Part shown: positions 14,759 to 39,148 of the stretch, piece after piece
Numbering within the stretch: position 1 is the stretch's first letter
Layout of the letters: each line of letters starts with the position of its first letter
Origin: a virus
Virus genome (UHGV): UHGV-1485161
Strand: one strand, 5' to 3'
DNA length: 39,148 nucleotides
Position numbers and translations under genes: made by a program
Notes under the pieces: model-generated
What the model saw: only the letters and a program-made list of their open reading frames with translations
Database searches by the model: none
What the model was told of the DNA's origin: nothing

Positions 14759-14767
14759 AAACATCCC

Positions 14768-16067: not shown

Positions 16068-16087
<20 letters not shown>
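14768..16087 (-). CDS. C: head maturation protease / scaffold protein C
   Basis: 439 codons ending ...NPASDAVNDLLNTPV, starting VTAELRNLPHIASMAFNEPLMLEPAYARVFF (GTG start), with a 20-nt overlap with the B stop as in lambda. It sits inside the artefactual 689-aa track ORF. Confidence 0.85.
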
Positions 16088-19768
<3,681 letters not shown>

Positions 19769-19794
<26 letters not shown>

Positions 19795-20314: not shown

Positions 20315-20329
20315 TGTTCATTCCACGGA

Positions 20330-20520
20330 CAAAAACAGAGAAAGGAAACGACAGAGGCCAAAAAGCCCGTTTTCAGCATCTGTCGTTTCCTTTCCTTTCA
20401 GGGGGTGTTTTAAATAAAAACATTAAGTTACGGCGAAGAAGAACGGAAACGCCTTAAACCGGAAAATTTTCATAAATAGCGAAAACCCGCGCGCCTGACG
20501 CCCCGTAACCTGTCGGATCA
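20330..20520 (-). other. cos region: cosB (Nu1 binding sites) and cosN; 12-nt cohesive-end segment at about 20493-20504
   Basis: Sequence upstream of Nu1 aligns by eye with the lambda left end, and 20505 onward with the lambda right end. The 12-mer at the junction is CGCCTGACGCCC (reverse complement GGGCGTCAGGCG) against lambda GGGCGGCGACCT. Confidence 0.6.
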
Positions 20521-20943: not shown

Positions 20944-20961
20944 GTGCGACCACGGTCGCAC
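20944..20961. repeat. 18-bp palindrome GTGCGACCACGGTCGCAC, copy 1
   Basis: Exact 18-mer, about 25 nt upstream of the 20920 start codon on the minus strand. Confidence 0.7.
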
Positions 20962-21163: not shown

Positions 21164-21181
21164 GTGCGACCACGGTCGCAC
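21164..21181. repeat. 18-bp palindrome GTGCGACCACGGTCGCAC, copy 2
   Basis: Exact 18-mer between the 21201..21512 gene and the cos-proximal gene. Confidence 0.7.
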
Positions 21182-22882: not shown

Positions 22883-23963
22883 TTACTCAAATAACTTTTT
22901 CACTTCATCAACTGTCTGAAGATAACGTTCGCCCTCAATCTCAATACCTATTGCCTGACGTCCTAACTTCAGCGCAGCTTTAATAGTTGAGCCTGATCCC
23001 ATAAAGAAATCGGCAACGATATCTCCGGGGCGTGAACTACTCTTTATAATATGTTCCATCATCGCTGCAGGTTTTTCACATGGGTGCTTGCCAGGATAAT
23101 ATTGCACAGGAGGAAACTCCCATACATCGGTATAAGGTACATCAGCAGTAACATGAAATGGACGGCGTAAATTTTCATACTGAGCCTTCAAATCATCATA
23201 CTGCTTCTTTACTTCCTCATAATGCAATTTCAGATCGCTATAACGCTTTTCATGTTCTGAATAATCAACATTAAAAGGATATGGACACGGGACACCGAGT
23301 GAATCTGCCTTCCTGCGAAATAATTCGCATAGTTTATTAAAATCAATTAATGATGGAAGCCGCCACTGCGAATAAGAAAACCAGTGTGAACACATCTGCT
23401 TTCCTGTCGCTGAATTAATGTCTGCGGCTGATATATCTAACTGACGGCGAGCCAGCGAAAAAGCATCAATTAGTGGAGAAAAAATATTTTTTCTTAAATC
23501 TGCACATTTTGAAGCATAACCTGACTGACCTTTAGCATAACCTGACGCGCCGTAATGCTCTGCAAATAATATTCTTTCAGTAGCAGGAAAATAAGCCCTT
23601 AAACTTTCTTTATGACAACCGCGCCACATACCACTGGGTTTAGCCCAAATGATATGGTTCAGAACATTGAAACGGTCGCGAGTTAATAATTCAATTTTTG
23701 ACGCAAGGCGAGAGCCGGTAAACATATACAGGCTGCCATTAGGGGCCAATATCCAGCCAAAATTCTAGCAAAAATTCGTCAAATCCACCCCCAAAAAAAG
23801 TCAGCATCGCTATCCCACTGGTTATCCCATGCGTTAGCCTTTACGCCGAAGTATGGTGGGTCTGTTGCAATCAAAATTGACCGGTTATCAGGGATGGTTT
23901 TGATAAATTGCAGAGATCTGCGCAAACGAGTTGTGCGCCATGAATATTAGTGGTTTTGAACAT
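22883..23963 (-). pseudogene. DNA methyltransferase (DPPY and FxGxG motifs), N-terminal region frameshifted
   Basis: Track ORF 22883..23749 has ...FMGSGSTIKAALKLGRQAIGIEI (motif I); upstream in other frames are IPDNRSILIATDPPYFGVKANAWDNQW (motif IV) and MFKTTNIHGAQLVCADLCNLSK. Breaks are at T7/G5/A-runs near 23760-23810 and about 23900. Confidence 0.75.
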
Positions 23964-24103
23964 TAGCTATTTACTTTTTTTTGCCCTGGGGTAAAGCTAA
24001 CCCGGCGATGCGCATCGCGGGTGGGCTTTAGGTTCAGCCTATAGCTCTGGCATGGGTTGACCGCAGGACAAGCTGCAACTTGTCCTGCGCCCACTTTTCA
24101 GGC

Positions 24104-24214: not shown

Positions 24215-24232
24215 GTGCGACCGTGGTCGCAC
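24215..24232. repeat. 18-bp palindrome, copy 3 (GTGCGACCGTGGTCGCAC, reverse orientation)
   Basis: Exact 18-mer immediately after the stop of the 24238..24465 gene. Confidence 0.7.
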
Positions 24233-24718: not shown

Positions 24719-24865
24719 ATAGTTAGTGGGTTATTGCCCCTCAATGACACGAACTGTAACTCTGCCAAACGAACACATCCAGTGTTATTTTTCGCTTTTT
24801 AATGAAATTTTTAATTTGCGTTGTTTTCTTGTTTTGGTGTATTTTATGGATGTGGAGGCTATAAT

Positions 24866-25177
24866 ATGTTTAACGTGATAACCCACCCTGCAGCACTGGA
24901 TGAACTGCTTGAACTACCAGATGATTTGCGAGGTCGCATGGCCAGATTAATTGAGCGACTGGAGAAAGAAGGCAACAAACTGAAGATGCCCCATAGCCGT
25001 GTAATAGGTGGAGGGCTTTTTGAACTACGAGTAGGGGATAAAAACATCGCAAGAACGCTGTACGCCTACGCGACTGGTAACGAAATTTATCTATTGCATG
25101 CATTTGTAAAAAAGACACAGAAAACACCGGTGAAGGCTATCGAAATCGCCAGAACTCGCCTGAAGGAGATGAACTGA
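24866..25177 (+). CDS. type II toxin, RelE/HigB-like (Gp49-like family)
   Basis: ATG with GGAGG 7 nt upstream; MFNVITHPAALDELLELPDDLRGRMARLIERLEKEGNKLKMPHSRVIGGGLFELRVGD... typical of HigB/Gp49-like killers; 1-nt overlap (TGATG) with the next gene. Confidence 0.65.
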   Translation: MFNVITHPAALDELLELPDDLRGRMARLIERLEKEGNKLKMPHSRVIGGGLFELRVGDKNIARTLYAYATGNEIYLLHAFVKKTQKTPVKAIEIARTRLKEMN

Positions 25178-25464
25178 TGAAAGCGAAAGGCATCCCGTTT
25201 AACGAAGTAAAAGAAAAACTCCTCAACACTCCAGAAGCCGTCAAAGGATATGAAGAGGCCGACAAAGAGCTGGAGATGGTCGAAATGTTATACGAAATGA
25301 GGGAAAGAGCAGGTTTAACGAAATCAGCTCTGGCTGAACGAATGGGGTTACGACCGTCAGCCATCAGCCGCCTGGAAAGCAATCCTTTAGGGGCAAGTAT
25401 GAAAACTTTGGCTAAATATGCTCATGCCTGCGGCGCAGCCATCGATATTCGCGCTGTTTATTAA
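25177..25464 (+). CDS. HTH XRE-family antitoxin (HigA-like)
   Basis: Track ORF of 95 aa with HTH ...LTKSALAERMGLRPSAISRLESNP..., translationally coupled to the toxin. Confidence 0.65.
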   Translation: MKAKGIPFNEVKEKLLNTPEAVKGYEEADKELEMVEMLYEMRERAGLTKSALAERMGLRPSAISRLESNPLGASMKTLAKYAHACGAAIDIRAVY

Positions 25465-25506: not shown

Positions 25507-25710
25507 TCAATGATGTGAACGCTCAACAGCGATAGTTTTCTGACAATGCTGGGCAATCTCTCGCGACATGTTGATGAGTCGTGAAACCTCACCAATATGT
25601 AGGCTGGCTTCTGGAGAAGCCAGGGTGACGCTAACCAGATCCAGAATGGCGTCAATATCTCTTAAATTTGAATCGAGTTGTTCAAGAGTTGATACGGCTG
25701 CTTCAGACAT
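25507..25710 (-). CDS. hypothetical small protein
   Basis: Track ORF of 67 aa. Confidence 0.35.
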   Translation of the reverse strand: MSEAAVSTLEQLDSNLRDIDAILDLVSVTLASPEASLHIGEVSRLINMSREIAQHCQKTIAVERSHH

Positions 25711-25792
25711 TAAATCTCATACCATTTAACTAAAAAAGGTTGTTTGTACTGTATAAAATTACAGGGTAAAACTCAAACTTTACGGTCAATTT

Positions 25793-26044: not shown

Positions 26045-26058
26045 CGTGACCAGTCACG
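26045..26058. repeat. 14-bp palindrome CGTGACCAGTCACG, copy 1
   Basis: Overlaps the stop of the 26054..26380 gene and precedes the RBS of the next gene. Confidence 0.6.
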
Positions 26059-26395: not shown

Positions 26396-26848
26396 TTACT
26401 TAACCCAATTAACTACACCGCCAGCGGCCACAACCGCCCTTTCACAGTCACGCTCATATCTCAAAGGTTGAAATACACCATCAATAAAATATTTATCTCC
26501 ACCAAACGCTGCAGGAAGTGAAACAGAAAACTGAACATGACCATCCGGAGTTACCGGAGAGTTGCCAGCCTCATACGCCACACGCATCCAGTGCAGAAGC
26601 ATTTCAGTGCTCACACAGCCGCAATCAACATCAATTTTGCCGTGCTGCTGTTCCAGCCATTGCTCAAAAGTTAACTTGTAAGTTTGGCTTACAGGTTCTG
26701 CACTATCAGCTTCGCGCCGCTTCTGTAGCTCTGCTGCCATCGCTCTCACGACTTCAACTGGTGCCCTTGCAGCAAACTCTATGTTGGTGATCAGCTCATT
26801 AAGATATTGCTCGCCTGGATACTGTTTCTTATCGGTTATAGTGGTCAT
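26396..26848 (-). CDS. hypothetical protein
   Basis: Start MTTITDKKQYPGEQY overlapping the upstream stop (ATGA), inside track ORF 26396..26890. Confidence 0.5.
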   Translation of the reverse strand: MTTITDKKQYPGEQYLNELITNIEFAARAPVEVVRAMAAELQKRREADSAEPVSQTYKLTFEQWLEQQHGKIDVDCGCVSTEMLLHWMRVAYEAGNSPVTPDGHVQFSVSLPAAFGGDKYFIDGVFQPLRYERDCERAVVAAGGVVNWVK

Positions 26849-26849
26849 A

Positions 26850-27227
26850 TCACTCTCCTTTTCCCTGAAGCATAGCGGCACGGCAGGCATTCCACCCCTT
26901 CACATAACCGAACGCCATCAACTGATCACTCATGGCGGGCAGCATTGTGTGGGTCGTACTGATTTCTTCCGGCACTACCGGCGCTGGCGGGGCGATGCGT
27001 CCAAGCAACTTATTTACCTCTTTCGCCATCGCGTCATATTTATCTAAATGGCGATTAGCTTCTAAGCAGACTCGGCGCATCTGATCTGAGTTAACTCGTT
27101 TAACTGGATCTGCTTCCAGCGATGCCAGAGCAATTCGTGCCAGTTCCATTTGTTCGCCACGAGTAAGTCCGTTATCAAGCGGATTTTTAATGAACAATTC
27201 AATACGTTCTTTGGTAATAGTGGTCAT
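26850..27227 (-). CDS. DUF551-like protein (ead/Ea22-region family), paralogue 1
   Basis: Track ORF of 125 aa; N-terminus MTTITKERIELFIKNPLDNGLTRGEQMELARIALASLEA and C-terminus GWNACRAAMLQGKGE shared with 27502..27912. Confidence 0.55.
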   Translation of the reverse strand: MTTITKERIELFIKNPLDNGLTRGEQMELARIALASLEADPVKRVNSDQMRRVCLEANRHLDKYDAMAKEVNKLLGRIAPPAPVVPEEISTTHTMLPAMSDQLMAFGYVKGWNACRAAMLQGKGE

Positions 27228-27237
27228 GTGTTACTCC

Positions 27238-27501
27238 TTAACCCGCAGTGCTTTCAACTGATGAGGGGAACAAAATCTTTTCATCAAACCCTGCATTCAT
27301 ATCATGGACAGCAACACACCAATCCATTGACGAACGATTATCAAGAGCCTCCATGATTTCATCCATGCGGCGCAGGTCATACAGGTAAATGCTTTTATCG
27401 CCAATGGTGTAAAAACCAATTTTTTTCGGTGATGGGCAGCGATCAAGAACGTCCTGTAATTCGTTCAACCATGCCCGTTCTTTTTTGTTAAAGTTGCCAT
27501 A
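27238..27501 (-). CDS. hypothetical small protein, start probably displaced by a homopolymer indel
   Basis: Track ORF 27238..27468 begins on TTG; an ATG with ATGA overlap (MATLTKK...) lies upstream in another frame across an A6 run. Confidence 0.35.
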   Translation of the reverse strand, partial: YGNFNKKERAWLNELQDVLDRCPSPKKIGFYTIGDKSIYLYDLRRMDEIMEALDNRSSMDWCVAVHDMNAGFDEKILFPSSVESTAG

Positions 27502-27912
27502 TCACTCTCCTTTCCCATGAAGCATAGCGGCGCGGCAGGCGTTCCAGCCTGTAGCGTATGCAGCCGCTTTGCTGCTGCCTTCAACTGGCGCATCCTGCCA
27601 ATACATTTCATCCGGCACTACCGGCGCTGGCAAGGCAGCGTGATAGTAGAGTGGCATAGTTTTGTACAGTGGTTCGCCAGGACTTCCGTCAACCTGATTC
27701 CATTCTTCAACCCAGGCATCAACAACCGCTTTGCTGGTTGATACATGTTCTTCTGAATCTACATTTTGTCCTGATATACAGAACATAACTGCCTCTGCTT
27801 CCAGCGATGCCAGAGCAATTCGTGCCAGTTCCATTTGTTCGCCACGAGTAAGTCCGTTATCAAGCGGATTTTTAATGAATAATTTGATACGTTCTTTGGT
27901 TATAGCGTTCAT
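27502..27912 (-). CDS. DUF551-like protein, paralogue 2
   Basis: Start MNAITKERIKLFIKNPLDNGLTRGEQMELARIALASLEA with AGGAG RBS; C-terminus ...GWNACRAAMLHGKGE. Confidence 0.55.
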   Translation of the reverse strand: MNAITKERIKLFIKNPLDNGLTRGEQMELARIALASLEAEAVMFCISGQNVDSEEHVSTSKAVVDAWVEEWNQVDGSPGEPLYKTMPLYYHAALPAPVVPDEMYWQDAPVEGSSKAAAYATGWNACRAAMLHGKGE

Positions 27913-27913
27913 C

Positions 27914-28603
27914 TCACTCTCCTTTGATGCCAATGTTTACAGACTGGCAAGCCTCTTTGAGCACCCAGTCAACAGCGTCTTTCCATGCTCCGGTTTCGAC
28001 TGGCGGATTCTCACGCTTAACTTGTTCATAGAAACGCACGGCTTTAACCAGTCCTTCTGATGTCACCGGGACTGGCGGGGCAGTGAATAAGGCCTGAATC
28101 TCATAGCTCGGCCTGTCGTTGCAATCCTCTTTTGTCGGTACATATTTCCAGTCACCAACCCACGGCTCCCCCTGAGAGTCCGTAACGCCTTTTTTCACGT
28201 AGCGATATCGCCACGCTACAGGCTCCGCCGCCAGCGCCGCGCGATTGCTCTCCAGCTCTGCAATGCGCTGTTTTGCGGTATCAAGTTCAATCGATAATTT
28301 TTCCAACTGCTCTTTATGCTTCTTGTATTCCTGATATGCGTGCCAGGACTGACCTTTGCGCACACTATCAGTAATATCAGTAATCTGTTCTGGTGTTAGC
28401 GTGGTCAGTGGCTGTGCTGGGAAAATCAGCACTTTCCCGGAATCCCAATCAAAACCAGCGTGAATTGACTGAACCTCAACTGAGGGTGTTGAACCAATGC
28501 TGCCAGGCGAATGAATAACGATTGTTACATCCATATCGCGACGATGGCTGTGGTTGTTGGACAAAATACGATTCACCAACTCAGAAAATTTGGAAAATTT
28601 CAT
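27914..28603 (-). CDS. coiled-coil protein with DUF551-like C-terminus, paralogue 3
   Basis: Track ORF of 229 aa; central coiled coil (EQLEKLSIELDTAKQRIAELESNRAALAA) and a C-terminal region resembling the two paralogues above. Confidence 0.5.
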   Translation of the reverse strand: MKFSKFSELVNRILSNNHSHRRDMDVTIVIHSPGSIGSTPSVEVQSIHAGFDWDSGKVLIFPAQPLTTLTPEQITDITDSVRKGQSWHAYQEYKKHKEQLEKLSIELDTAKQRIAELESNRAALAAEPVAWRYRYVKKGVTDSQGEPWVGDWKYVPTKEDCNDRPSYEIQALFTAPPVPVTSEGLVKAVRFYEQVKRENPPVETGAWKDAVDWVLKEACQSVNIGIKGE

Positions 28604-28890
28604 GCTGATTCCCCTTTCTCTGCTCTCTCCTGTCGGAACATCACTATCATCAGGTCGCCTTTTGTCGCTATCTTGGCTGTTGTGCCTGGCTCAATGCGGC
28701 TAAGTTCAAATGCGTCATAGAACGCCTCTAACACTTTCTGGCGTCTTTCCTGTTTGCGGTGCTTTCCCCACTGCTTTAGAAAAACAGAGGCCGCCCACTT
28801 CCCCGCACTGAACATGATGTAAAACCAACCGAGAAGTGCCAGACCGATATTTAGGGCCGTATCGATCGTTATCGTGGTGTCGATATTCAC
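28600..28890 (-). CDS. small membrane protein
   Basis: Track ORF of 96 aa with one strong hydrophobic helix (LNIGLALLGWFYIMF). Confidence 0.45.
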   Translation of the reverse strand: MNIDTTITIDTALNIGLALLGWFYIMFSAGKWAASVFLKQWGKHRKQERRQKVLEAFYDAFELSRIEPGTTAKIATKGDLMIVMFRQERAEKGESA

Positions 28891-29310
28891 TACGCCACCT
28901 CCTGTAAATTTCCCTGATAAAAAGCCAGCACACGCTGCATAACTTCACTTTTCCGGCAATCGTGACAAATCATGTTCAAGCGCCTGTCGTAACGACGTAT
29001 TTCTCCGTCAGGTAATGACCAGATAAGGTCTGGATCAACCACTACCGATTTCTTCGGCTTTACTCTTGATAGTTTTTTTACGGGCGTTTTGCCAGTCCTT
29101 GCGTGCTTGTGCAGACAGAAATATCCCGGAGCCAGAGATATACAAATCACCACTGGCAGCAAGCTCTCTTGATAAACGACTAACAGCACACCGGCTAATA
29201 CCAGTTTCATCCGCAAGTTGCCTAACCGTTCCTCGTCCATTCAGGCGCACGAGTTCCACAATTTGTTTATTCAGTTCTTCCCTCTGTTCTGGTGTAAAAG
29301 CCTTTGCCAT
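28890..29310 (-). CDS. HTH DNA-binding protein, possibly with a C-terminal Zn-ribbon extension split by a frameshift
   Basis: Track ORF 29035..29310 (MAKAFTPEQREELNKQIVELVRLNGRGTVRQLADETGISRCAVSRL..., HTH). Removing one A from the A7 run near 29074-29080 continues it into ...VVVDPDLIWSLPDGEIRRYDRRLNMICHDCRKSEV... (track ORF 28890..29240). Confidence 0.45.
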
Positions 29311-29909
29311 TACGATTCTCCTTGCCCTTTTACAAGACGGGAGAAAATTGCGGATACATATTTAGCCTGATGAATAGCATCAGCCAAGGCATTGTGTCGT
29401 TGGCCATCAAATGGCATATCTTTTTTAGGATTAAAACCAATAAACTGACCAAGATTAACGATTGTTCGAACATCCTGATCATTAAAATATTCCCACGGAC
29501 AGGCTAAGCCAACGCGCTCATAAGCACCGCGTAAAATTACATTATCGAACGTTGCTCCATTTCCCCATACTTTCAACTTTTTTAAATTACATGCATGGCA
29601 AGTAATAAAGTGTGATAATTCAAAAAGTGCATCATTAATATCAAGGGCATCATTAGTACAAATAGCGGCTCTGGCTTCCTTGCTCTGTTTCAACCACCAT
29701 AAAATGGTATCACCATCGGCGATACCACCATTCAACATCGAGCTTCTGAGATTCACTGGCACATAAAAAGTAGGACCTAATTCCTCACTTTCTGGAGAAA
29801 AAAACACTGCCCCGATAGAAACAATTGGAGCACATGTGTTAGTACCCATTGTTTCAAGGTCAATCATTACATCAGACCGTTTCCTGTCGTAAATAATCTG
29901 ATTAGTCAC
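29310..29909 (-). CDS. DnaQ-like 3'-5' exonuclease (DEDDh family)
   Basis: Track ORF of 199 aa with Exo I motif VMIDLETMG and Exo III motif HNALADAIHQAKYV. Confidence 0.7.
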   Translation of the reverse strand: MTNQIIYDRKRSDVMIDLETMGTNTCAPIVSIGAVFFSPESEELGPTFYVPVNLRSSMLNGGIADGDTILWWLKQSKEARAAICTNDALDINDALFELSHFITCHACNLKKLKVWGNGATFDNVILRGAYERVGLACPWEYFNDQDVRTIVNLGQFIGFNPKKDMPFDGQRHNALADAIHQAKYVSAIFSRLVKGQGES

Positions 29910-29932
29910 GAATAATTCTCCTCAACGTTTAT

Positions 29933-30136
29933 CTATACCCAAATTTTCTGTTGATATGTTCTGGATGGTTTTGGCGTTCTTTCTGATTCAGGTAAATGAA
30001 CATAAACACAATATCCATCACCTAAAAAATCAGAACGAACAACCAGAACTTTCTTACCACGCCGCCGATAAGTATCTGAAAGACGCTCTGCTTCATCATG
30101 CGTCATCGGCCCCTGCTTAAATGGCGTTATTTTCAT
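29933..30136 (-). CDS. hypothetical small protein
   Basis: Internal ATG (MKITPFKQGPMTHDEAERL...) 6 nt downstream of palindrome copy 4; the track ORF start lies inside the palindrome. Confidence 0.4.
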   Translation of the reverse strand: MKITPFKQGPMTHDEAERLSDTYRRRGKKVLVVRSDFLGDGYCVYVHLPESERTPKPSRTYQQKIWV

Positions 30137-30362
30137 TTTCTTGTGCGACCACGGTCGCACCCTCTCTGATTTCCAAGTAACGCTTAATCCAAAGATTTTC
30201 TATATGCTTATTACCTGGCTGATTTGATAAATACCAATCGGCAATTACAGACTGCTTATTACTATCTGGTCGTGTCCTATAACCACAAGTTGGACACCAG
30301 ATAACATATTCATTTCTTACCCCCGAATACCTTAATTCTGGCTTCGACGGTTTCCTGAACAT
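30117..30362 (-). CDS. small zinc-finger-like protein (CPTCGY motif)
   Basis: Internal start MFRKPSKPELRYSGVRNEYVIWCPTCGYRTRPDS... within track ORF 30117..30437. Confidence 0.4.
   Translation of the reverse strand: MFRKPSKPELRYSGVRNEYVIWCPTCGYRTRPDSNKQSVIADWYLSNQPGNKHIENLWIKRYLEIREGATVVAQENENNAI
30143..30160. repeat. 18-bp palindrome GTGCGACCACGGTCGCAC, copy 4
   Basis: Exact 18-mer spanning the 3' end of one gene and the 5' UTR of the next. Confidence 0.7.
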
Positions 30363-30369
30363 AACTTGT

Positions 30370-31080
30370 TTACAAAGGCAGAATGGCACTTCCTGCCCGA
30401 TGGCGTTTGATGATTTCACTGCGCTTCTCCGCCGCATTTAATAATGCAGTTCGATTTAAGCTCAGACATCGCGACTTAATTAAAAGCCAGCGTTCTTTAT
30501 AATCTTGTCTCCAGCTATCAATAGATATATTCAGTAGAAAACTCAGATGCCTGTCCTGTTCTCTCTCATCAACTGCCTCAGCACACGTAAGTTCTGATTT
30601 AACCTGTTGTGCCGCGTAATAAATCAATTTTCGCATAGCTTTTTTCGTGGAGGCCTTCATTTTTTTAAAGCCGCCCCCCGAATGAGCAACCAGAAAATCA
30701 AGCCATAACCACTGACAAACAATCACATCATTGTTGTAATCAGGCTTGCATCCGTAGCAATAATAAAGCCAGGCTGATTCCTCGTTATTCAACTGACCAA
30801 TAGCCCTGCGCCAGCTGGCGCTCTGAAAATCAATATCAGTGAGCAACATTGATGATTGTTTAAATGTTTTCCCCTGATGGAATCTAACCGGCTCAGCAGA
30901 AACGGACACTTCGTATGAGTTATCATCCCCCACACTGATTGACCGGACTGGTTTATTGTTAAACCGTCCTGATCTACCGAGACGCATCTGCTCAAGCTGG
31001 ACCTCCAGAATGCCACGCTGGAGATAATGAACATCAGCCAATGCCGTAGAGACGCAGCTGCGTATATACTCAAGCTCCAC
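30370..31080 (-). CDS. early regulator directly downstream of cro; possible Q-like antiterminator or CII-position protein
   Basis: Track ORF of 236 aa with a Cys-rich segment (YYCYGCKPDYNNDVIVCQW); function inferred only from position. Confidence 0.4.
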   Translation of the reverse strand: MELEYIRSCVSTALADVHYLQRGILEVQLEQMRLGRSGRFNNKPVRSISVGDDNSYEVSVSAEPVRFHQGKTFKQSSMLLTDIDFQSASWRRAIGQLNNEESAWLYYCYGCKPDYNNDVIVCQWLWLDFLVAHSGGGFKKMKASTKKAMRKLIYYAAQQVKSELTCAEAVDEREQDRHLSFLLNISIDSWRQDYKERWLLIKSRCLSLNRTALLNAAEKRSEIIKRHRAGSAILPL

Positions 31081-31291
31081 GCTTACGACTCTCCTTAATC
31101 GACTGCTTTACCCGCCGAGTTGTAAAGTCACTCTTCAGCTTATAAGCAGTACGAACTTCAATATCGCTTTGCCGCAATGAAGGAATCTCTCCAGCGGTTA
31201 ACCATTGGTAAACAGCTCCGGGTGTTACACCTACCCCTGCCGCTGCTTTTTCTACACTGCCAAAATGGCGAATAAGTTCTTCTGGTTTCAT
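31070..31291 (-). CDS. Cro/YdaS-like HTH regulator
   Basis: MKPEELIRHFGSVEKAAAGVGVTPGAVYQWLTAGEIPSLRQSDIE..., divergent from the repressor gene across the operator region. Confidence 0.65.
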   Translation of the reverse strand: MKPEELIRHFGSVEKAAAGVGVTPGAVYQWLTAGEIPSLRQSDIEVRTAYKLKSDFTTRRVKQSIKESRKRGA

Positions 31292-31318
31292 GTTGTTATT
31301 ATAAACAATAAACAACAA

Positions 31319-31360
31319 TTAAAGCCAGCTATAATAAATAAATTTTATAGCCAGCTATAA
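31319..31360. promoter_or_regulatory. immunity-region operators: two 16-bp palindromes TTA(A/T)AGCCAGCTATAA, 26 bp centre to centre, between cro-like and cI-like genes
   Basis: Sites at 31319-31334 and 31345-31360 with 7-bp inverted arms TTATAGC/GCTATAA, in the 91-bp divergent intergenic region. Confidence 0.55.
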
Positions 31361-31382
31361 GAAGATCATTTATGATTAAGCT

Positions 31383-31979
31383 ATGAAAACACGAGGCGAA
31401 CGACTGAAAGCACGCCGTTTAGAGATGAAGCTGACGTTGCGAGAAGTTGCTGAGGCTGTCGATATCTCTATAGCAGGCGTCCAAAACTTAGAACGTGGCG
31501 ACGTAATGCCGTCACTGGAGATAGGTATTGCCCTGGCTAAGTGCTTACGCAAGCCAGTGCATTGGGTGCTATATGGGACAGAATATGACCCTGATCGCAT
31601 TCCTGTTATTGGCACAACTGAAAGTGGGCCGGATGAAGAGTGGAAGCCGGGACAGGTTCCAAATACTGAGCGATTCCTGCCATTCATCAGCCAGCGCAAT
31701 ACTGTGTATGCGTTAACTATCAGCAATCTTACGCAGGGAAACTATCAGCCAGGCGATTTTCTCCTGGTCGATTCTGCGCTGGAACTGGTCCCCGGCGAGG
31801 ATGTTCTGGTTCGTGATACTGCAGGAAATATCACTATCCAGCGCCTGGCCCGTTTTGATGATGAAAATTACTATCTGGATGGAACAAACTCACAACGCGC
31901 CATCTTCAGGAAAAGCGATCTTGAATTTGTTCACCAAATAGTCGGAACGATCAAATCATTCATGGTTGAGGGTAGATGA
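31383..31979 (+). CDS. CI-like repressor (N-terminal XRE HTH plus C-terminal S24/LexA-like domain)
   Basis: Track ORF of 198 aa; HTH LKARRLEMKLTLREVAEAVDISIAGVQNLERGD; C-terminal domain ...GDFLLVDSALELVPGEDVLVRD...; I could not find a clear GxSM nucleophile motif. Confidence 0.8.
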   Translation: MKTRGERLKARRLEMKLTLREVAEAVDISIAGVQNLERGDVMPSLEIGIALAKCLRKPVHWVLYGTEYDPDRIPVIGTTESGPDEEWKPGQVPNTERFLPFISQRNTVYALTISNLTQGNYQPGDFLLVDSALELVPGEDVLVRDTAGNITIQRLARFDDENYYLDGTNSQRAIFRKSDLEFVHQIVGTIKSFMVEGR

Positions 31980-32080
31980 CTTAATATGGGGTTTATTGTT
32001 TACTGTAAATCTGGTTTAATGCAGGGCATATGTTCTGTGGGTTGACTCAGGTTACAGCAGCAGAAAAAAGACGAAAAAAA

Positions 32081-32110
32081 ACCCGAGTCGGCAAACTCGG
32101 GTCCTTTTCA
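32081..32110 (+). terminator. putative intrinsic terminator downstream of the repressor gene
   Basis: Hairpin ACCCGAG-N7-CTCGGGT flanked by A8 upstream and a short T run downstream (potentially bidirectional). Confidence 0.4.
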
Positions 32111-32224
32111 GGAAGCAGCCACAACAACGCGACGGATTCCGTCAATTCAAGATGCGTTTATTGTGGCTGCTCCTGCGGATTTTTTCAACCCGAAAAAACA
32201 TAATTCGCATGGAATGGCTAAAAA

Positions 32225-35200
32225 ATGACATTAAACGATTTCTATGCGGAATCGCATTTGGCAGCGATCCGTTCATCGCTAATTGAAGCAGCACGGGATG
32301 AACTAACCGAGCTGGCACAGATGGCTGGTATCAACTGGTCTGCCTGTTCCGACAACATCCAACTCAACCCTCGCGGGGGTGTTGAGCGTTACTCTTCATA
32401 CAATAAAACATCTCCAGAAGCTCTCGAGAAGAGCCTCAAAGGACGCGTAGAAATTTACTCCCGACTGGAACACAGCAAAGGGATTGATTACCCGTTCATT
32501 AACTTCGTCCATAAAGGCAGCGATGCTGGCTCATGGAGCGGTTTCTCCTTCCTGTTTTCTGAATATCGCCGTGAGCAACAACGGAATAATGCGACCGTGG
32601 TCGCACAACCGGAAGAAGAACGGGCAAGAATAGAACGTGAAGCACGTCGTCGCCGTGAAGAACAAAAACGAATTAATGACCTGAAAAACAACCAAATGGA
32701 CCATGAACGTTTGCTGGGATGGCTGGCATTCCACAGTGCTTGGGAACATGCTCCTGCAGAAGACGGCTCATGGCCATATGCGATTAAAAAAGGTATTCGT
32801 GACGTTTTTAATTCGTGTGATGTGCGTCGCGTGACCAGTCACGACAGCGCAAAATGGAGCAGGGGGCCAACCACGTATATGGCTATCCCTCTGGCTCACC
32901 TGGACGGTCGTTACGATGGTCGTATTGTTGGTTGGCAGCGAATCGACAAACAAGGTGGAAAATACCAGACCAGCGCCGTAACCAGCGGCGATTTCGTCGG
33001 TGCCTGCTTTGTTATCGGTGAGCTGAAAGGGGCGCAAAACATCGCTGTTACAGAAGGTTTTGCTACTGGTGCATCCATCTGGCTTGCCACGAAAAAAGAT
33101 AAACGCTTTGACGCTGTGGTTGTCGCTGTATCCGCTAACAACATGGTTCATGTTGTGGAACAACTGGTAAACATGTACCCGGCGGCAAAAATCACCTGCG
33201 CACTGGATAATGACCGGAAATCAGCTACAGAAGGAAAAGGGAATACCGGCCTGCGGACTGGCTATGAAATCTTATCGAAATTCAACGATGTCCGCTGCGT
33301 CTATCCAACTTTTGAAGACGATCCGCAAATGGAGTGCAGTGACTTCAACGACCTGCACAAACTACGTGGACTTCGTGAAACAGCACGTCAACTGTTTGCA
33401 ACTGCAAACCGCCTGAAAACTGGCACTGATTTGCTATCTCTGACGCTCAACCGCCTGAAGACAATTAAGCGGGATAACCGTCGTACTTTTGCCAAAGAGC
33501 TGCTGAGAGCGGTGGATATTGGCATGCTAACCTGCCCGGTTCCTAACAGTCCGTCAGATTTATTTAACATGTTCTGCATCGTTCTGCGTGAAATGGGACT
33601 GGAAAATATCTATCGCGCTACGGTAAAAGACCACATTGCCCGTCGCCTGAATAAAAAGTGCCGTATTGCCCAGGCTCCGCGCTCTTTCAGCGAACGCATA
33701 ACTGATCCCAATAAACGCCCTCAACATATCACCTATAAGCGTTTTGAAACTTCGGTAATGACCGATGATGTCCTGAAGTACGTGCAATCACTACAGGGGA
33801 TAGTCATCGTCCGTGCTGGTATGGGTTCCGGCAAATCTACTGGATTGTTACGACCGTTAATGCATAGCTCAGAACGTGGTATCTCTGTTGCTCACCGTGT
33901 CTCCCTTATTGGTGGCCTGTGGGAAATGATGACAGAAGGAAAAGGTGTAAAAGCCGATATCCTGCACTATCAGGACCCTGGCTATCAGGAAATGGCTCCA
34001 TACGCCAGTAAACTGACCATCTGCATAAACTCGATTGTTAAAAACTGCTGGCAACCGTTGATGCGCCAGCACGACTATTTTGGCTTTGACGAGGCCACGC
34101 AAGGGCTACGTGCCGTTCTTTCCGGTCGGGCTATGGAAAACCCGGTTGCTGTATTCAATACGCTAATTGACGCGCTGGCCAGAACGGAACAACACCCAAT
34201 CATGGTGGATGCTGATGCGAACGATCTACTGGTTGACCTGGCTGAACTGGCTATGAAACGCCGTGAAGAACTAGGTTTACCGGCATGGCTGCAGATCCAC
34301 GTAATTGAATTACCTGTTGATGTTCGCAACCGCGAAACAGGTGAGCCAATCCGGGTTTTTTATACAGAAAAAGATCGCATCATGACCGAGGTGGTGAAAG
34401 CTGTATCGGATGGCGAAAAAATCATGTTGGCCACCGACAGCTCCACCTTTGCAGAAGATGTGACAGCCACCCTGAGAATGCATTTTCCTGGTAAGAAATT
34501 TCTGTGTGTAAACCAGAAAAACAAACCAGAGCCAGAAGTTGAAGCATTTACCAATCAACCGAAAAAGATGGTCAAAAAATACGACGGCCTGATTTATAGC
34601 CCGTCTATTTCATCCGGCGTGTCGATTGAGCAAAAACATTTTGACCGTCATTTCGGCATGTTCTGTGGTGAAGTTGTACCCAGCGACGCAGTGCAAATGC
34701 TACGCCGCGACCGTACAGCAAAAGAATTTATTATCGGCTTTGATAAAGCTCGTGCAAAACGTGAAACTGACCCGCAAAAAATAGAACGAGCATTCGCCCA
34801 GGCATTGCTTGCTACCGCAGGTATGAACGGTGAACTTACGGATGTCGTTTTCGATGGCGACCGTATATCAATGGGGGTGGCCAATACCGACTTTACCAGG
34901 ATGAAAATTAAAGCAGCCGCAATTGAAGCGACTGCGCGTAACGACTACGCCAGCAACATGATCTGCATCATGCACAGCGACGGTTATAAGGTATCACCGC
35001 TGGCCACCGATTATGCTGCGAATGATATCGGTAAAGATCTGCGTAAAGAAGCGCGGGATATTGTGTGGGAACAGACACTGGATCTGCACCTCAATACAGA
35101 AACTCCACAAGAATCAGAGCGTGAAGAACTGCTAAAAAAACGCGCGCTGACGCTTGAAGAACAGGCAAAACTTGTCCGCTGGGATATTGAAAACGAACTG

Positions 35201-36217
35201 AAACTACCGGTTGAAGAAGGCACGCTGAAATTCTATTTCGATGGTGCTCGAGACAAAGTTCGCCGCTATGAAACAATGCTTTTAGATGAGGTAACAGCTC
35301 GTCGTTACGACCGGGAAGAAGCAGCCATCAATTTTACCTACGCATACCGTCAGGCGGGACAGTGGCAATATTTTGTAGTGACCGCGATGACTCGCGAGCA
35401 GGCTGATGATGTCTTTAAAACTAAATTCCCTGGAATAATCGATCACAAGGTAAAAGCTACTCCTACTGTTGAAGTCGGGGCGCGCGGTTTCTATGCGCTT
35501 AAATCAGCAACTCTCCGGCAGTACTTTATCGACTGCGGTATCAACCCTGAGACTATGACCGGCGAGGCGACTCAGGAGCGTCTCAAATTCGCTCGAGATA
35601 ACCTCATGACAGCCGAACGCCGTGACCTGTTGAATAACGTTCTGCACATTGGTGGTTTTATGACGCCAAAAGGGAAGCCTAAAGTGCCGGAAGCGTTGTT
35701 TAAAAACATTTGCGACTCTCTTGGCCTTAAAACAGGTAAACGTCGCGGCAGAGACGGCGATAAGCGTCCAACCTTGCGTTTTGTTGAGCCTGAATCAGCG
35801 GCATTTATGCTGGATATTCTTGCTCAGCGTCAGAAAGATGGCCTAACCCTGAAAACGCGTAAAGCCGAGAAGACCGCCATCGAAATGGATCGCGATTTGG
35901 ATCTCAATATATATATGGATGATAAAACGCGATCCACAAACGAGCAGGTTCAAAACGCCCCTCATTCAGTAATTTCTGAGGCTTTGGCTGTGTTGCCAGT
36001 GGTTGTACCTGAGTCCTGGGCGATGAGTGCGCTTTCCGGTGAGGAGCTGGCCACTATGTCATCATGGTCATCAGCCAGCATAGCTATGACGTTTGCCTCT
36101 CTGTACCTCACAGAGTTCATGGATCACTTATCCAGCAATGAACTGCGGCGGTTACGTGAATACATTACCGGGAATAGCCCATGCAGCTACGAAGAGCAGG
36201 GCGCTTTCTATGGGTAA
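32225..36217 (+). CDS. replication protein: Toprim primase domain plus P-loop NTPase/helicase, N15 RepA-like architecture
   Basis: Track ORF of 1330 aa with Toprim motifs (IAVTEGFATGASIW, CALDNDRKS), Walker A VRAGMGSGKST and Walker B YFGFDEATQ, and a long C-terminal region. Size and gene order (repressor then replicase on the same strand) recall N15 repA from memory. Confidence 0.7.
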   Translation: MTLNDFYAESHLAAIRSSLIEAARDELTELAQMAGINWSACSDNIQLNPRGGVERYSSYNKTSPEALEKSLKGRVEIYSRLEHSKGIDYPFINFVHKGSDAGSWSGFSFLFSEYRREQQRNNATVVAQPEEERARIEREARRRREEQKRINDLKNNQMDHERLLGWLAFHSAWEHAPAEDGSWPYAIKKGIRDVFNSCDVRRVTSHDSAKWSRGPTTYMAIPLAHLDGRYDGRIVGWQRIDKQGGKYQTSAVTSGDFVGACFVIGELKGAQNIAVTEGFATGASIWLATKKDKRFDAVVVAVSANNMVHVVEQLVNMYPAAKITCALDNDRKSATEGKGNTGLRTGYEILSKFNDVRCVYPTFEDDPQMECSDFNDLHKLRGLRETARQLFATANRLKTGTDLLSLTLNRLKTIKRDNRRTFAKELLRAVDIGMLTCPVPNSPSDLFNMFCIVLREMGLENIYRATVKDHIARRLNKKCRIAQAPRSFSERITDPNKRPQHITYKRFETSVMTDDVLKYVQSLQGIVIVRAGMGSGKSTGLLRPLMHSSERGISVAHRVSLIGGLWEMMTEGKGVKADILHYQDPGYQEMAPYASKLTICINSIVKNCWQPLMRQHDYFGFDEATQGLRAVLSGRAMENPVAVFNTLIDALARTEQHPIMVDADANDLLVDLAELAMKRREELGLPAWLQIHVIELPVDVRNRETGEPIRVFYTEKDRIMTEVVKAVSDGEKIMLATDSSTFAEDVTATLRMHFPGKKFLCVNQKNKPEPEVEAFTNQPKKMVKKYDGLIYSPSISSGVSIEQKHFDRHFGMFCGEVVPSDAVQMLRRDRTAKEFIIGFDKARAKRETDPQKIERAFAQALLATAGMNGELTDVVFDGDRISMGVANTDFTRMKIKAAAIEATARNDYASNMICIMHSDGYKVSPLATDYAANDIGKDLRKEARDIVWEQTLDLHLNTETPQESEREELLKKRALTLEEQAKLVRWDIENELKLPVEEGTLKFYFDGARDKVRRYETMLLDEVTARRYDREEAAINFTYAYRQAGQWQYFVVTAMTREQADDVFKTKFPGIIDHKVKATPTVEVGARGFYALKSATLRQYFIDCGINPETMTGEATQERLKFARDNLMTAERRDLLNNVLHIGGFMTPKGKPKVPEALFKNICDSLGLKTGKRRGRDGDKRPTLRFVEPESAAFMLDILAQRQKDGLTLKTRKAEKTAIEMDRDLDLNIYMDDKTRSTNEQVQNAPHSVISEALAVLPVVVPESWAMSALSGEELATMSSWSSASIAMTFASLYLTEFMDHLSSNELRRLREYITGNSPCSYEEQGAFYG
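32590..32606. repeat. 18-bp palindrome, copy 5 (17 of 18 match), inside the replicase coding region
   Basis: TGCGACCGTGGTCGCAC within codons NNATVVAQ. Confidence 0.6.
32830..32843. repeat. 14-bp palindrome CGTGACCAGTCACG, copy 2, inside the replicase coding region
   Basis: Exact 14-mer about 240 bp downstream of palindrome copy 5. Confidence 0.6.
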
Positions 36218-36401
36218 TCAGTGGATATTATCTTTGTGTCTCTTGCTTTGTGTGTTCCAGCAATGGTTTTGGTTCATAGATCGAAAGTCTCACAAGGAAA
36301 ACATGAAGGCCAGGAAGGCGATGTTTCGTGGTGAACAACTCGCGCAGACTTATCGTATGTGGAAACGTTTCTATCGTGATTTTTCGGTTAACGGGGAGTA
36401 A
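36210..36401 (+). CDS. possible small membrane peptide overlapping the replicase stop
   Basis: ATG overlapping the repA stop; MGNQWILSLCLLLCVFQQWFWFIDRK... has one hydrophobic helix then a basic tail. An alternative start MKARKAM at about 36303 has an AAGGA RBS. Confidence 0.3.
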   Translation: MGNQWILSLCLLLCVFQQWFWFIDRKSHKENMKARKAMFRGEQLAQTYRMWKRFYRDFSVNGE

Positions 36402-36405
36402 AAAT

Positions 36406-37131
36406 ATGTCTACTACTGCATTTTTGGACAAACTTGATTACCGTCAGCTGCAGTTTTGCCGGGATGAATGCGATCGACGCATTAAGGCTATCCAGGAGGA
36501 AGAAAAAAAGGTTGCCTGGGCTGTAACAGATCGTGGCCTTATCTTTGGCTGGTTCCGTACGGAGGATTATCTGAAAGCAGTGGAGTTATTGGCGCGTGAG
36601 GCTGCTGAGCGTTGGGAACGAGCCGACAAGGAAAACCCGGAGACGAAGTATGAACTGAATCTCTACATCGAGGGCAACCATCTACCATTGTCAGAGTATA
36701 ACGCTTTGTTTGCTGATGGTGAGTGGGGTTTAAAAATGGCTGTTCAATCATACAAATACGAATCCCCTTTGGATAAGGGATACATTCGTATCAAGTTAAG
36801 TCGTTCTCAGCATAAGGCTATTTTTAAGGTAAGGAAAATTCGCATATTGGATGCGTATGCGTATTACTACAACGGTGAAAATGTTGTTGTTGAACACTTT
36901 CTTGCACGATGGTTTGTAGCTCTGATTTTTGTCCCTCTCCTGTTAATTGGTACTTTTGTGGATGGTTTTCCTAGTACATGGCGGGAGATAAAGAAAGGCC
37001 TATTCCCGCGTAAGTACGGCAGATTTTCGCAAGATAGCTGGCGAGTTATACCTGGTAAACATTCTGTGGATGAGCAGCCGATTGTTGATTACTGGTTGAA
37101 GCGTATGGCTGATGCTAAAAAAGTTGATTGA
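36406..37131 (+). CDS. hypothetical protein with C-terminal transmembrane helix
   Basis: ATG with GGGGAG RBS inside track ORF 36328..37131; MSTTAFLDKLDYRQLQFCRDECDRRIKAIQEEEKK...; TM segment FLARWFVALIFVPLLLIGTFV. Confidence 0.55.
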   Translation: MSTTAFLDKLDYRQLQFCRDECDRRIKAIQEEEKKVAWAVTDRGLIFGWFRTEDYLKAVELLAREAAERWERADKENPETKYELNLYIEGNHLPLSEYNALFADGEWGLKMAVQSYKYESPLDKGYIRIKLSRSQHKAIFKVRKIRILDAYAYYYNGENVVVEHFLARWFVALIFVPLLLIGTFVDGFPSTWREIKKGLFPRKYGRFSQDSWRVIPGKHSVDEQPIVDYWLKRMADAKKVD

Positions 37132-37158
37132 GTTGTGATAACTGTTACAGGAGATAAA

Positions 37159-37446
37159 GTGAAGAGTTTTATTTTGGTTTTATGTTTTGCCTTTTCTGCT
37201 GCGGTTTATGCCCAGGAAGATAGCATTTCTGTTATTAACTCATCAGCGGAGCTTGCATGTAAAAATAATCCCGATGCTGCATCAAAAGAATCATGCAAAG
37301 AACTGCTCCTTTCGACGGCTGCTTTTGCTTCTGAAAATGCGAAATTTTATTCAGCCTTCTGTCGCGGCTATGTTAAGGAAGAAGATAAAGAAAAATGTGA
37401 TGATGCCGGTAAGTTAGTTAGGTATTTCCACTCTCTTAATCCGTAA
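37159..37446 (+). CDS. small secreted Cys-containing protein
   Basis: GTG start with AGGAG RBS; signal peptide KSFILVLCFAFSAAVYA then QEDSISV...; the mature part has five Cys. Track ORF starts at 37135. Confidence 0.5.
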   Translation: MKSFILVLCFAFSAAVYAQEDSISVINSSAELACKNNPDAASKESCKELLLSTAAFASENAKFYSAFCRGYVKEEDKEKCDDAGKLVRYFHSLNP

Positions 37447-37507
37447 TGGCCTTTGATTAACGATCAACTTCTGATCACTCGTTCAAGCAAACTATAAAAA
37501 CACCTGT

Positions 37508-37527
37508 CCCCGTGACTGGTCACGGGG
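37508..37527. repeat. 20-bp palindrome CCCCGTGACTGGTCACGGGG (14-bp family, copy 3)
   Basis: Perfect inverted repeat in the intergenic region after the secreted-protein gene. Confidence 0.6.
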
Positions 37528-37636
37528 TAAAATGTCTTTGCAAATTATTGACGTGTGCGTCGTTTTAACGGTAAAGTTACTCCGCTGCGGCAAATTCCGC
37601 AGCCGGGCGTGAGAACCCGGATAAACGAAGCGCACA

Positions 37637-37660
37637 ACACGCGCCAGCGTGTTTTTTTTT
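37637..37660 (+). terminator. intrinsic terminator
   Basis: Hairpin ACACGC-GCCA-GCGTGT followed by T9 on the plus strand. Confidence 0.6.
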
Positions 37661-37826
37661 GTGTGTATATACCTGCGCATATCCGATTTATGGTGGCTCA
37701 GGCGGGGCTGACTTCGGTCAGGCCGGTTTCTTCGTTTGCCGGTATTCTCACCCCCGCTTGGGCTACCACCATTCAAGAGCGTGAGAACTCTGGTGGTAGC
37801 ACGACCAATTAAACGGAGTGCATACC

Positions 37827-37991
37827 ATGTTCAAATTCAAATTTGCGGCAGTCGTTCGCACAGACAAAAAGTCACACATCCATCATCTTTCCACCATCGC
37901 GTCATCTGAACGGGAAGCTCGTCGCCAGTTCGCCAGCCGGTTTGTCCTGGTATTGTCTGCCCGTATTCCGGTGCGCGAGGTGGCTGCATGA
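37827..37991 (+). CDS. possible small protein (54 aa)
   Basis: ATG 8 nt after GGAG; MFKFKFAAVVRTDKKSHIHHLSTIASSEREARRQF...; stop overlaps the next ATG (ATGA). Below the ORF-track length cut-off. Confidence 0.35.
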   Translation: MFKFKFAAVVRTDKKSHIHHLSTIASSEREARRQFASRFVLVLSARIPVREVAA

Positions 37992-38221
37992 ATCAGGTAA
38001 AAATGAACACTGTTGGCCTGCTGGAATCGTTGGATGAACGTCTGGCTCAGGTCTATGCGCTCGTATCATCAGCCCATCGGACAGTCTCCAGCTGTGAGGC
38101 GTCGATTTATCTCTCAGAAGCAGGGAAACTCCTTCAAATTGCGTGTGAGTTAACACACGAAGCACAGGGATATTCAGCATCGCTCTCGTCGCAATTGCTG
38201 CACGGTAAGGAGGCTGAATGA
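37988..38221 (+). CDS. hypothetical small protein
   Basis: Track ORF of 77 aa, translationally coupled to the flanking genes. Confidence 0.45.
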   Translation: MNQVKMNTVGLLESLDERLAQVYALVSSAHRTVSSCEASIYLSEAGKLLQIACELTHEAQGYSASLSSQLLHGKEAE

Positions 38222-38925
38222 GCGCGTTAGCAGTCTTTTCCTTTCAGGAAGAGCATCAGGTACGTGTAGTGATGATTAACGGCGATCCGTGGTTTGTGGC
38301 GAATGATATTTGCAATGCTTTAAGCATCCAGAATGTCACACAAGCTATCGCTCGATTAGATGAAGATGAGCGATCTATGTTTAACATAGGCCGTCAAGGT
38401 CAAGCCAATATCATCAGTGAATCAGGTCTTTACACGCTCATTCTCCGCTGCCGTGACGCGGTGAAGCAAGGCACAACAGCTTGGCGGTTTCGCAAATGGG
38501 TAACGAACGAAGTCTTGCCCTCTATTCGTAAAAATGGAGAGTACGTTTACATCGAGCCTGAGCCAATGCGAGCAGCGGAGCCGTTGAACTGGAGGCAGAA
38601 AGAGTATCTGCGAGGGCTGATTAACGATATAGCACAAAGTTTTCAGTACCGAAATGCCTGGATTAGCGGTGTATGGTTAGCTTTGCGTCGGGCGTGTCGT
38701 AATCCATCCCCGAACCCCATAACGGTTGATGATTTGCCAGCAATTACGGCAGAACTGCGCCGGATTTTGACGGCTGCTGAGTCGGCATTGGGGAACATGC
38801 GCACGTATGAACGAGAGTTGTTGCGTGATGTTGTTCGTGGGGGTAGGCGGAGTATGTCGTGTGGTGATTTACCCATCACCGATATTAACTCTGATCTGGA
38901 AAAGGCGTTACCCGCGCATTTTTGA
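38218..38925 (+). CDS. Bro-N domain protein (antirepressor-like)
   Basis: Track ORF of 235 aa; N-terminus ...VRVVMINGDPWFVANDICNALSI...ESGLYTLILRCRDAVKQGTTAWRFRKWVTNEVLPSIRKNG is the Bro-N/KilA-N signature. Confidence 0.75.
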   Translation: MSALAVFSFQEEHQVRVVMINGDPWFVANDICNALSIQNVTQAIARLDEDERSMFNIGRQGQANIISESGLYTLILRCRDAVKQGTTAWRFRKWVTNEVLPSIRKNGEYVYIEPEPMRAAEPLNWRQKEYLRGLINDIAQSFQYRNAWISGVWLALRRACRNPSPNPITVDDLPAITAELRRILTAAESALGNMRTYERELLRDVVRGGRRSMSCGDLPITDINSDLEKALPAHF

Positions 38926-39148
38926 ACTGGCAGTTCAAAAAACTTGAGCAGTTATCCGCGCAGCTAAAGCCAGCAGAAAATCACCAATAAATAGGGTTGA
39001 CCAGCCCGAATTTATGCCCTTCTTAGAGAAGGGAAGCCTCGCAGTCGGGGCGGTGATGTCTGTGGTTGCAGCCGCGTTTCCTCCGTTACTTCTGCCCTTT
39101 GCAGGGGGCAGGCGAGGTAGGTCACACAACAAGGCACCGTTAATTCGG

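Follow-up and report, generated by a model that had tools for sequence, protein, structure and literature searches.

The virus genome UHGV-1485161 (39,148 nucleotides, termed the window in the following, at its full length) combines virion genes of the lambda type with a single large open reading frame (ORF) of 1330 codons that lies downstream of a gene for a CI-like repressor. In a preliminary description this ORF was read as a primase-helicase with Toprim and Walker A/B motifs, lambda O/P genes were found missing, and the phage was suspected to be a mosaic able to replicate as a plasmid. The locus raises the question of how such a phage persists in its host, as an integrated lambdoid prophage or as a replicon of its own, in the manner of phage-plasmid N15. 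Our answer is that the window very probably represents about 39 kb of a telomere phage-plasmid of the N15 family with a total size of about 46 kb, which would persist in lysogens as a linear plasmid of low copy number, closed by hairpins at its ends, and not as an integrated prophage. Homology, synteny, the conservation of cis-acting elements and the plasmid location of relatives were computed here; all biochemical activities are taken from the literature on N15, phiKO2 and PY54.

The ORF was confirmed on the plus strand (Table 1), and by homology the gene is repA, coding for the replicase of the N15-family telomere phage-plasmids. A tblastn search of 50,697 phage records returned full-length matches to PhiR46_1 (98.4% identity), YDC107_1 (93.4%), four Klebsiella telomere phages (84%), phiKO2 Gp35 (74.8%), and the RepA proteins of PY54 (48.8%), VP882 (30.6%) and phiHAP-1 (27.8%). 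N15 gp37 matched with 74.6% identity over 99% of the length. The comparison with N15, phiKO2 and PY54 that had been proposed thus yields a full-length orthologue in each case. Among the family profiles, phrog_4913 (“replication”) covers residues 1 to 1315 with 1994 bits, three PHROGs annotated as “DNA primase” match residues 107 to 398, and the NCBIfam model NF042913 (CyRepA1 plasmid replication protein) matches residues 524 to 1033 with 259.5 bits at a cutoff of 200. Herpes_ori_bp is the Pfam family found above threshold.

To locate the catalytic motifs the protein was aligned with its counterparts from N15, phiKO2, PY54, VP882 and phiHAP-1. The Toprim motifs (E277-GFATGAS, D328-N-D330 and D373-x-N375-D376), the helicase motifs (Walker A G534-S-G-K537 and Walker B D622-E-A-x-Q626) and an arginine-rich motif (Q824-M-x-R-R-D-R-T) are invariant in this alignment, and the invariance of the primase and helicase motifs extends to relatives of only about 30% identity. 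Judged from these matches, RepA is composed of a predicted DnaG/Toprim-type primase at residues 121 to 398, approximately, and a predicted helicase of superfamily 2 (SF2) of the UL9/CyRepA1 type at about residues 524 to 1033, followed by a C-terminal part whose coding DNA carries a putative origin of replication (ori). The RepA proteins of N15 and PY54 have been classified accordingly, with a primase of the DnaG type joined to a replicative helicase of SF2 (PMC4889955).

The surroundings of repA lead to the same family. The annotated order in N15 is Q (gp40), cro (gp39), CB operators, cB (gp38), a CB operator, a stem-loop, repA (gp37) and small genes, followed by a terminator, gp32, gp31, gp30, telN on the other strand, telRL and sopA. 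The arrangement of repressor, replicase and divergent cro, which had been likened to that of N15, matches this map gene for gene, with Q coming directly after cro in leftward direction. The listed cro ORF reaches position 31318; its true start is likely the ATG at 31291, which matches the N15 start and gives the 222 nucleotides annotated in the plasmid sequence CP088379.1. The window shares its operator OR3 base for base with N15 and phiKO2, and OR2 differs from OR3 by one base. For N15 and phiKO2 it was reported that CB binds the OR sites, and that CB at OL represses repA transcription and lowers the copy number (PMC4488713, PMC4997575).

The statement that the replicase follows the repressor “directly” holds for the strand, which is the same, and not for the distance: a regulated leader of 245 nucleotides with operators and a terminator separates cB from repA. 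The terminator hairpin is identical in N15 and phiKO2, where it is labelled as a putative or bidirectional terminator. An ORF of 57 amino acids in this gap (32030 to 32203) was treated as spurious because it has no family match and spans both the terminator and the conserved leader. As a side observation, the leader between 32060 and 32224 hardly varies when the window, N15, phiKO2 and 48ST307 are compared, with the flanking genes being only about 75% identical. Its minus strand contains a strong terminator (32109 to 32074) followed by eight T residues, and a promoter-like site at 32188 to 32160 within the invariant block. The sequence suggests a leftward counter-transcript of approximately 85 nucleotides, or an attenuator. 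The stems were found invariant by RNAalifold with zero compensatory pairs, and since they never vary this result neither supports nor opposes an RNA structure.

Two kinds of sequence elements inside repA point to replication and maintenance as a plasmid. To find them we compared six RepA genes in a codon alignment with windows of 20 codons, in which the identity at third positions has a mean of 0.44 (standard deviation 0.07). Three stretches have an unusually high third-position identity, namely residues 109 to 138, 197 to 212 and 1217 to 1236. The last of these is the clearest segment in which third-position identity (0.63) exceeds amino acid identity (0.48), and the windows 3' of it display the same tendency more weakly.

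A search for AT-rich or repeated sequences in the 3' third of the gene, as suggested earlier, led to an element with the sequence ATGGATCGCGATTTGGATCTCAATATATATATGGATGATAAAACGCGATCCACAAAC. Its inverted repeat of 13 nucleotides (35886-35898 and 35924-35936) is 92% complementary, and the element contains the 30-mer with the lowest G+C content of repA as well as the sole cluster of three GATC sites in the gene. It aligns with three repeat_region features in the N15 record U63085. We take this element to be the putative internal ori of repA. According to PMC2847241, RepA starts bidirectional replication within repA, and the centromere site of N15 is likewise situated within this gene.

The second kind of element is a palindrome of the Sop type. 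The stretch of residues 109 to 138 (third-position identity 0.64) contains GCGACCGTGGTCGC. N15, phiKO2 and 48ST307 have this palindrome at the corresponding codons, and the phiKO2 record labels it as “putative plasmid partitioning site”. PY54 has GGGACCACGGTCCC at the matching codons, so that both arms are changed in a compensatory manner and the palindrome is kept. In the entire window, GCGACCNNGGTCGC occurs in five exact copies (starting at 20946, 21166, 24217, 30145 and 32591) compared to 0.01 expected. All five positions are shared with PhiR46_1 and plasmid pPEC1013-3, and two coincide with the N15 and phiKO2 sites. These palindromes are predicted to be dispersed centromere sites of the SopB type, one of them within repA.

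Apart from these, we observed a second palindrome of 14 base pairs, CGTGACCAGTCACG, in exactly three copies: between two small leftward genes (26045 to 26058), inside repA (32830 to 32843) and just upstream of the immA promoter (37511 to 37524). Even with two mismatches allowed 0.26 matches would be expected. The same three positions are filled in N15, the site is also kept in phiKO2 and 48ST307, and the repA copy lies in the conservation peak of residues 197 to 212 (third-position identity 0.66). No annotation or known binder of this palindrome was found. One may speculate, with considerable doubt, that N15-type replicons carry additional uncharacterized control in and around repA, consisting of these palindromes and of a counter-transcript from the leader that could set the copy number alongside CB.

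Further evidence arises from the relatives. The right arm of the window matches 25 places in 18 out of 5,426 complete Escherichia coli genomes, and 25 out of 25 are on plasmids and none on a chromosome. This supports the earlier suspicion that the phage may replicate as a plasmid, and the checks proposed along with that reading all turned out in its favor. PLSDB contains 215 matching plasmids, 210 of which are non-mobilizable. The linear plasmid pPEC1013-3 (46.7 kb) has 7.5 kb that are missing from the window, comprising protelomerase, sopA, parB and tail-fibre genes; protelomerase, sopA and parB lie directly outside both window ends. CP088379 carries telN just past the right end, and in PhiR46_1 a telL site is annotated, next to which lies an unannotated ORF of 633 amino acids, the size of a protelomerase. 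Three other metagenome contigs, at least one of them labelled as human gut, hold the last 35 nucleotides of the window, and all three run on into telN. We also noticed that the record CP088379.1 (“circular, complete”, 36.6 kb) is made up of the right arm twice, in inverted orientation, the copies being joined head-to-head where two telomere resolvase genes lie. This looks like an assembly that ran through a hairpin telomere and not like a real circular palindrome.

The virion genes are a separate matter. Positions 2505 to 20491 of the window are 97.0% identical at the DNA level to lambda 13 to 18002, from cos through J. The virion genes noted in the preliminary description as lambda-type are hence lambda's own and not merely lambda-like, and the lysis region is lambda-like in part. 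The lineage thus joins an N15-type backbone of replicon, immunity and telomere functions to a lambda structural cassette. The virion genes of N15 itself are also homologous to those of lambda (68 to 77% nucleotide identity), and the combination of such virion genes with this replicon is therefore the norm of the family; those of the window stand out solely by their 97% identity to lambda. As to cos, the flanks are lambda-like, and the cohesive end of 12 nucleotides at 20492 to 20503 is GGGCGTCAGGCG. The corresponding overhang is GGGCGGCGACCT in lambda, GGGCGGCGTCCG in N15, and GGGCGGAAGGCG in both PhiR46_1 and pPEC1013-3.

Several points weigh against the proposed reading and its parts. Neither telN, telRL, sopA nor sopB was found in the window, where SopB gave no match and SopA one spurious match (25% identity, E=0.001), and the linearity and active partition predicted for this element rest on its relatives. 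The absence is explained by the contig ending just short of these genes. Of the maintenance and integration functions that were to be searched for, protelomerase and partition genes are thus not part of the window, and neither is an integrase; plasmid maintenance is represented by the predicted centromere palindromes and the toxin-antitoxin pair. The putative ori is called from sequence conservation and an old GenBank annotation, and the clustering of GATC sites is not significant as independent support (P ~0.13). On the protein side, the Pfam match to Toprim_3 remains just below the gathering score, and a sequence search of the PDB with RepA gave nothing significant, the best hit being the herpes origin-binding protein (E=0.22). 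Finally, residues 9 to 20 of RepA are scrambled within a conserved segment, which, if real, might impair the protein.

The last point leads to the sequence quality and to the alternative that survives best, namely that we are looking at a copy which is decaying and no longer functional, with a damaged repA N-terminus, a frameshifted methylase gene and two fused small genes. The window is the whole SPAdes metagenome contig ERZ504612 NODE_263_length_39148_cov_4.1 with a coverage of about 4x. We compared it to CP088379.1, which is 99.8% identical across the right arm (27910 to 39148). Single-base insertions specific to the window do exist, as decay would predict: all differences past 29402, those in repA and immA included, are of this kind, with two adjacent inserted T residues at 37652-37653. 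In repA, single A insertions at 32250, 32256 and 32275, present in none of the relatives, recode residues 9 to 20, which belong to the RFGSDPFSL segment conserved in the family, and lead to 1330 instead of 1329 amino acids. However, the three insertions restore the frame within 26 nucleotides, the rest of the 4-kb ORF and all catalytic motifs of RepA are intact, and single-base insertions and deletions (indels) at 4x coverage are a typical error signature. The window-specific indels are most likely assembly errors given this coverage, for which reason the true RepA is probably the 1329-residue form found in CP088379.1. We consider decay improbable.

It is still less probable that the contig is the whole element, that is, a derivative that has lost telN, tel, sopAB and tail fibres by deletion and replicates as a circular plasmid driven by RepA, comparable to the mini-replicons of N15 and PY54. 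Such a derivative could in principle live, since repA alone suffices for circular replication, with repA, telN and tel being sufficient for the linear form (PMC10612081), and telN and sop are indeed not in the window. However, the contig is collinear with complete relatives, starts inside the tail-fibre gene stf, and stops within a hairpin 18 nucleotides before the telN stop codon in CP088379, and near-identical metagenome contigs run on into telN. No overlap between the two contig ends was found and there is consequently no sign of a circular deletion derivative; at 4x coverage, contig breaks are to be expected.

The weakest alternative, an integrated lambdoid prophage with no plasmid state in which the O/P module was swapped for a primase-helicase as in some non-lambdoid Stx phages, can draw on the resemblance of the virion genes, cos and some of the lysis region to lambda and on the general point that integrating phages can have primase-helicase replication modules, yet nothing in the window specifically favors it, the whole right arm beyond repA is collinear with N15, integrase, excisionase and host or att-type flanks are missing from the window, centromere sites and a toxin-antitoxin pair are there, and with 25 plasmid and no chromosomal matches it is close to refuted. 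The lack of O/P genes noted at the outset was confirmed in this context: lambda O, P, int, xis, N, cII, cI, cro, exo, bet, gam and Q have no tblastn match in the window at E<=1e-3.

For the favored N15-family phage-plasmid the following course can be proposed. After infection the cos ends would join, and TelN would cut telRL to give the linear plasmid with hairpin ends; telN, telRL and sopAB would lie just past the contig ends. CB at the OR sites would shut off cro and Q, and CB at the OL sites would throttle repA. As CB binds OL over the repA promoter, immunity would be coupled to copy number. RepA may recognize the ori in its own gene, unwind the AT-rich core and prime both strands, so that the host polymerase could replicate outward, and by homology with N15 and PY54 this replication should be bidirectional. 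The replicated telomeres would be resolved by TelN, SopAB would partition the copies via the dispersed GCGACCNNGGTCGC palindromes, and the Gp49/helix-turn-helix (HTH) toxin-antitoxin pair may penalize plasmid loss. The icd, antA and antB genes under control of the C4 RNA, together with a probably SOS-controlled antirepressor, could lift the repression by CB and lead to a higher copy number and lytic growth.

Table 1. Features located in the window, ordered by position (strand given where applicable).
Feature	Position	Strand	Remarks
Lambda virion and packaging module (J back to Nu1)	1600-20503	-	includes cos at about 20492-20503
Two predicted Sop-type centromere palindromes	20946-20959, 21166-21179		between cos and lysis genes
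Predicted Sop-type centromere palindrome	24217-24230		exact match
Toxin-antitoxin pair, Gp49/HigB-type toxin then HTH antitoxin	24821-25464	+	Pfam Gp49 100.6 bits, HTH_3 45.4 bits
Predicted Sop-type centromere palindrome, downstream of Q	30145-30158		same position as annotated partition site of phiKO2
Q, late-gene antiterminator	30370-31080	-	Phage_antiter_Q 280.9 bits; 68% to N15 gp40
cro	31070-31291	-	P22_Cro 78.9 bits; 87% to N15 Cro; likely start
OR operator block	31297-31360		OR3 TTATAGCCAGCTATAA at 31345-31360; OR2 at 31319-31334; OR1-like site further left
cB, prophage repressor (CI-like)	31383-31979	+	198 amino acids; HTH_3 and weak Peptidase_S24 match; 78% to N15 CB
OL operator block	31992-32031		overlaps presumed repA promoter; aligns with N15 protein_bind “CB prophage repressor operator”
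Terminator hairpin and repA leader	32074-32224		hairpin 32074-32109 from terminator scan; leader nearly invariant
repA	32225-36217	+	ATG start, ORF of 1330 amino acids; predicted multifunctional replicase
Predicted Sop-type centromere palindrome in repA	32591-32604		GCGACCGTGGTCGC, exact match
Putative ori in repA	35886-35936		inverted repeat TGGATCGCGATTT / AAAACGCGATCCA, 25-nucleotide AT-rich core, three GATC sites
immA secondary immunity locus	37571-38925	+	C4-type RNA, icd, antA-like, antB-like
a1/b1 targets	37571-37623	+	Rfam c4-a1b1 48.8 bits; just upstream of icd
C4 antisense RNA	37686-37773	+	Rfam C4 82.2 bits (gathering score 45)
icd	37818-37991	+	NCBIfam Icd-like; 93% to N15 gp32
antA-like	37988-38221	+	62% to N15 gp31
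antB-like, Bro-N	38218-38925	+	75% to N15 gp30

Among the remaining features, the genes of the immA locus are matched by antirepressor PHROGs. In addition, a match to the Hfq-binding small RNA isrK (Rfam, 68.1 bits) at 37584 to 37657 overlaps the a1/b1 target region. The toxin-antitoxin pair is annotated in relatives as a RelE/ParE toxin with an HTH regulator; the Pfam family Gp49 is named after N15 gp49. A canonical LexA box, CTGTATAAAATTACAG, was found at 25749 to 25764, 39 nucleotides upstream of an ORF of 67 amino acids (25507 to 25710, minus strand), and the counterpart region of N15 carries a LexA box as well (L008 282-297). N15 possesses an SOS-controlled antirepressor named AntC, of which we assume that this ORF may be a counterpart.

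Compared to PhiR46_1 and pPEC1013-3, the segments 26698 to 28246 (small ORFs of unknown function) and 37147 to 37468 (the region upstream of the C4 locus) are replaced, representing swaps of accessory genes. An inserted T at 36729 merges two genes, which encode 108 and 131 amino acids in CP088379.1 (PHROGs 10878 and 15458), into one ORF at 36328 to 37131. The gene of an N6/N4 DNA methyltransferase (22883 to 23995, minus strand) is intact only from profile position 44 on; approximately its first 80 codons, the region of the DPPY motif included, are broken by several indels between 23750 and 23995 in comparison with CP088379.1, so that we have here a pseudogene or, alternatively, sequence of poor quality.

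Nearly identical sequences have been deposited before, both as phage records and as plasmids of E. coli, E. fergusonii and Shigella, and a preprint from 2025 describes this exact mosaic for N15-like phage-plasmids of Escherichia and Shigella. It finds that the structural cassette shares considerable identity with lambda, and that the region of repA, sopAB and telN is related to phiKO2 and NAR688 (bioRxiv 10.1101/2025.09.12.675607). The element type and its lambda mosaic are known, and our finding is correct but ordinary. Its relevance lies mostly in correct annotation: the label that suits this gut-metagenome contig is N15-like telomere phage-plasmid, and not lambdoid prophage. Records often mistake such elements for cryptic plasmids, or name RepA “origin of replication binding protein” or “primase”. 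The 97% identical cassette furthermore provides a clean example of how a module was recently exchanged between a lineage of integrating phages and one whose prophages are plasmids.

Of the systems known to carry comparable replication genes, lambda O/P has in common with RepA that the origin, a putative one in repA, lies within the initiator gene, ori-lambda being inside O. It differs in that there is no sequence similarity and no O/P homologue in the window, and that RepA would bring its own primase and helicase whereas lambda recruits DnaB of the host. The alpha protein of the satellite phage P4, which had been suggested for comparison, resembles RepA in being one polypeptide with primase, helicase and origin recognition. 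At the sequence level the resemblance stood up as a distant homology in the Toprim core, the only part that aligns (RepA residues 219 to 330, 26% identity over 115 amino acids, pairwise E=1e-5), and not in the helicase, which cannot be aligned and matches UL9/CyRepA1 in the window. The helicase of P4 alpha is of the SF3 type, in contrast to the SF2/UL9-like one predicted for RepA. Moreover, ori and crr of P4 are located outside alpha, and P4 integrates via Int.

The Klebsiella phages phiKO2, NAR688 and 48ST307 and the Yersinia phage PY54 share the RepA family, the logic of immB and the partition site inside repA with the window, and differ from it in their virion cassettes. phiKO2 and PY54 are also syntenic in gene order; PY54 deviates by the GGGACCACGGTCCC variant of the centromere and by a single OR operator. 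N15 is collinear with the window from Q to gp30 and has OR3, the repA codons of the predicted centromere palindrome, repeats that align with the putative ori, the set of C4-type RNA, icd, antA and antB, and the Gp49 toxin-antitoxin pair in common with it. On the other hand, the right-arm DNA is only about 72% identical, the virion module of the window is 97% identical to lambda compared to 68 to 77% for that of N15, the cos overhang differs, and gp35 is the sole accessory gene that both have between repA and immA. The closest agreement is with PhiR46_1 (PV340565), YDC107_1 and E. coli/Shigella plasmids such as pF16EC0617-5 (CP088379) and pPEC1013-3. They all possess a structural cassette of the lambda type, differ from the window by small indels and replaced segments, and represent the same type of element.

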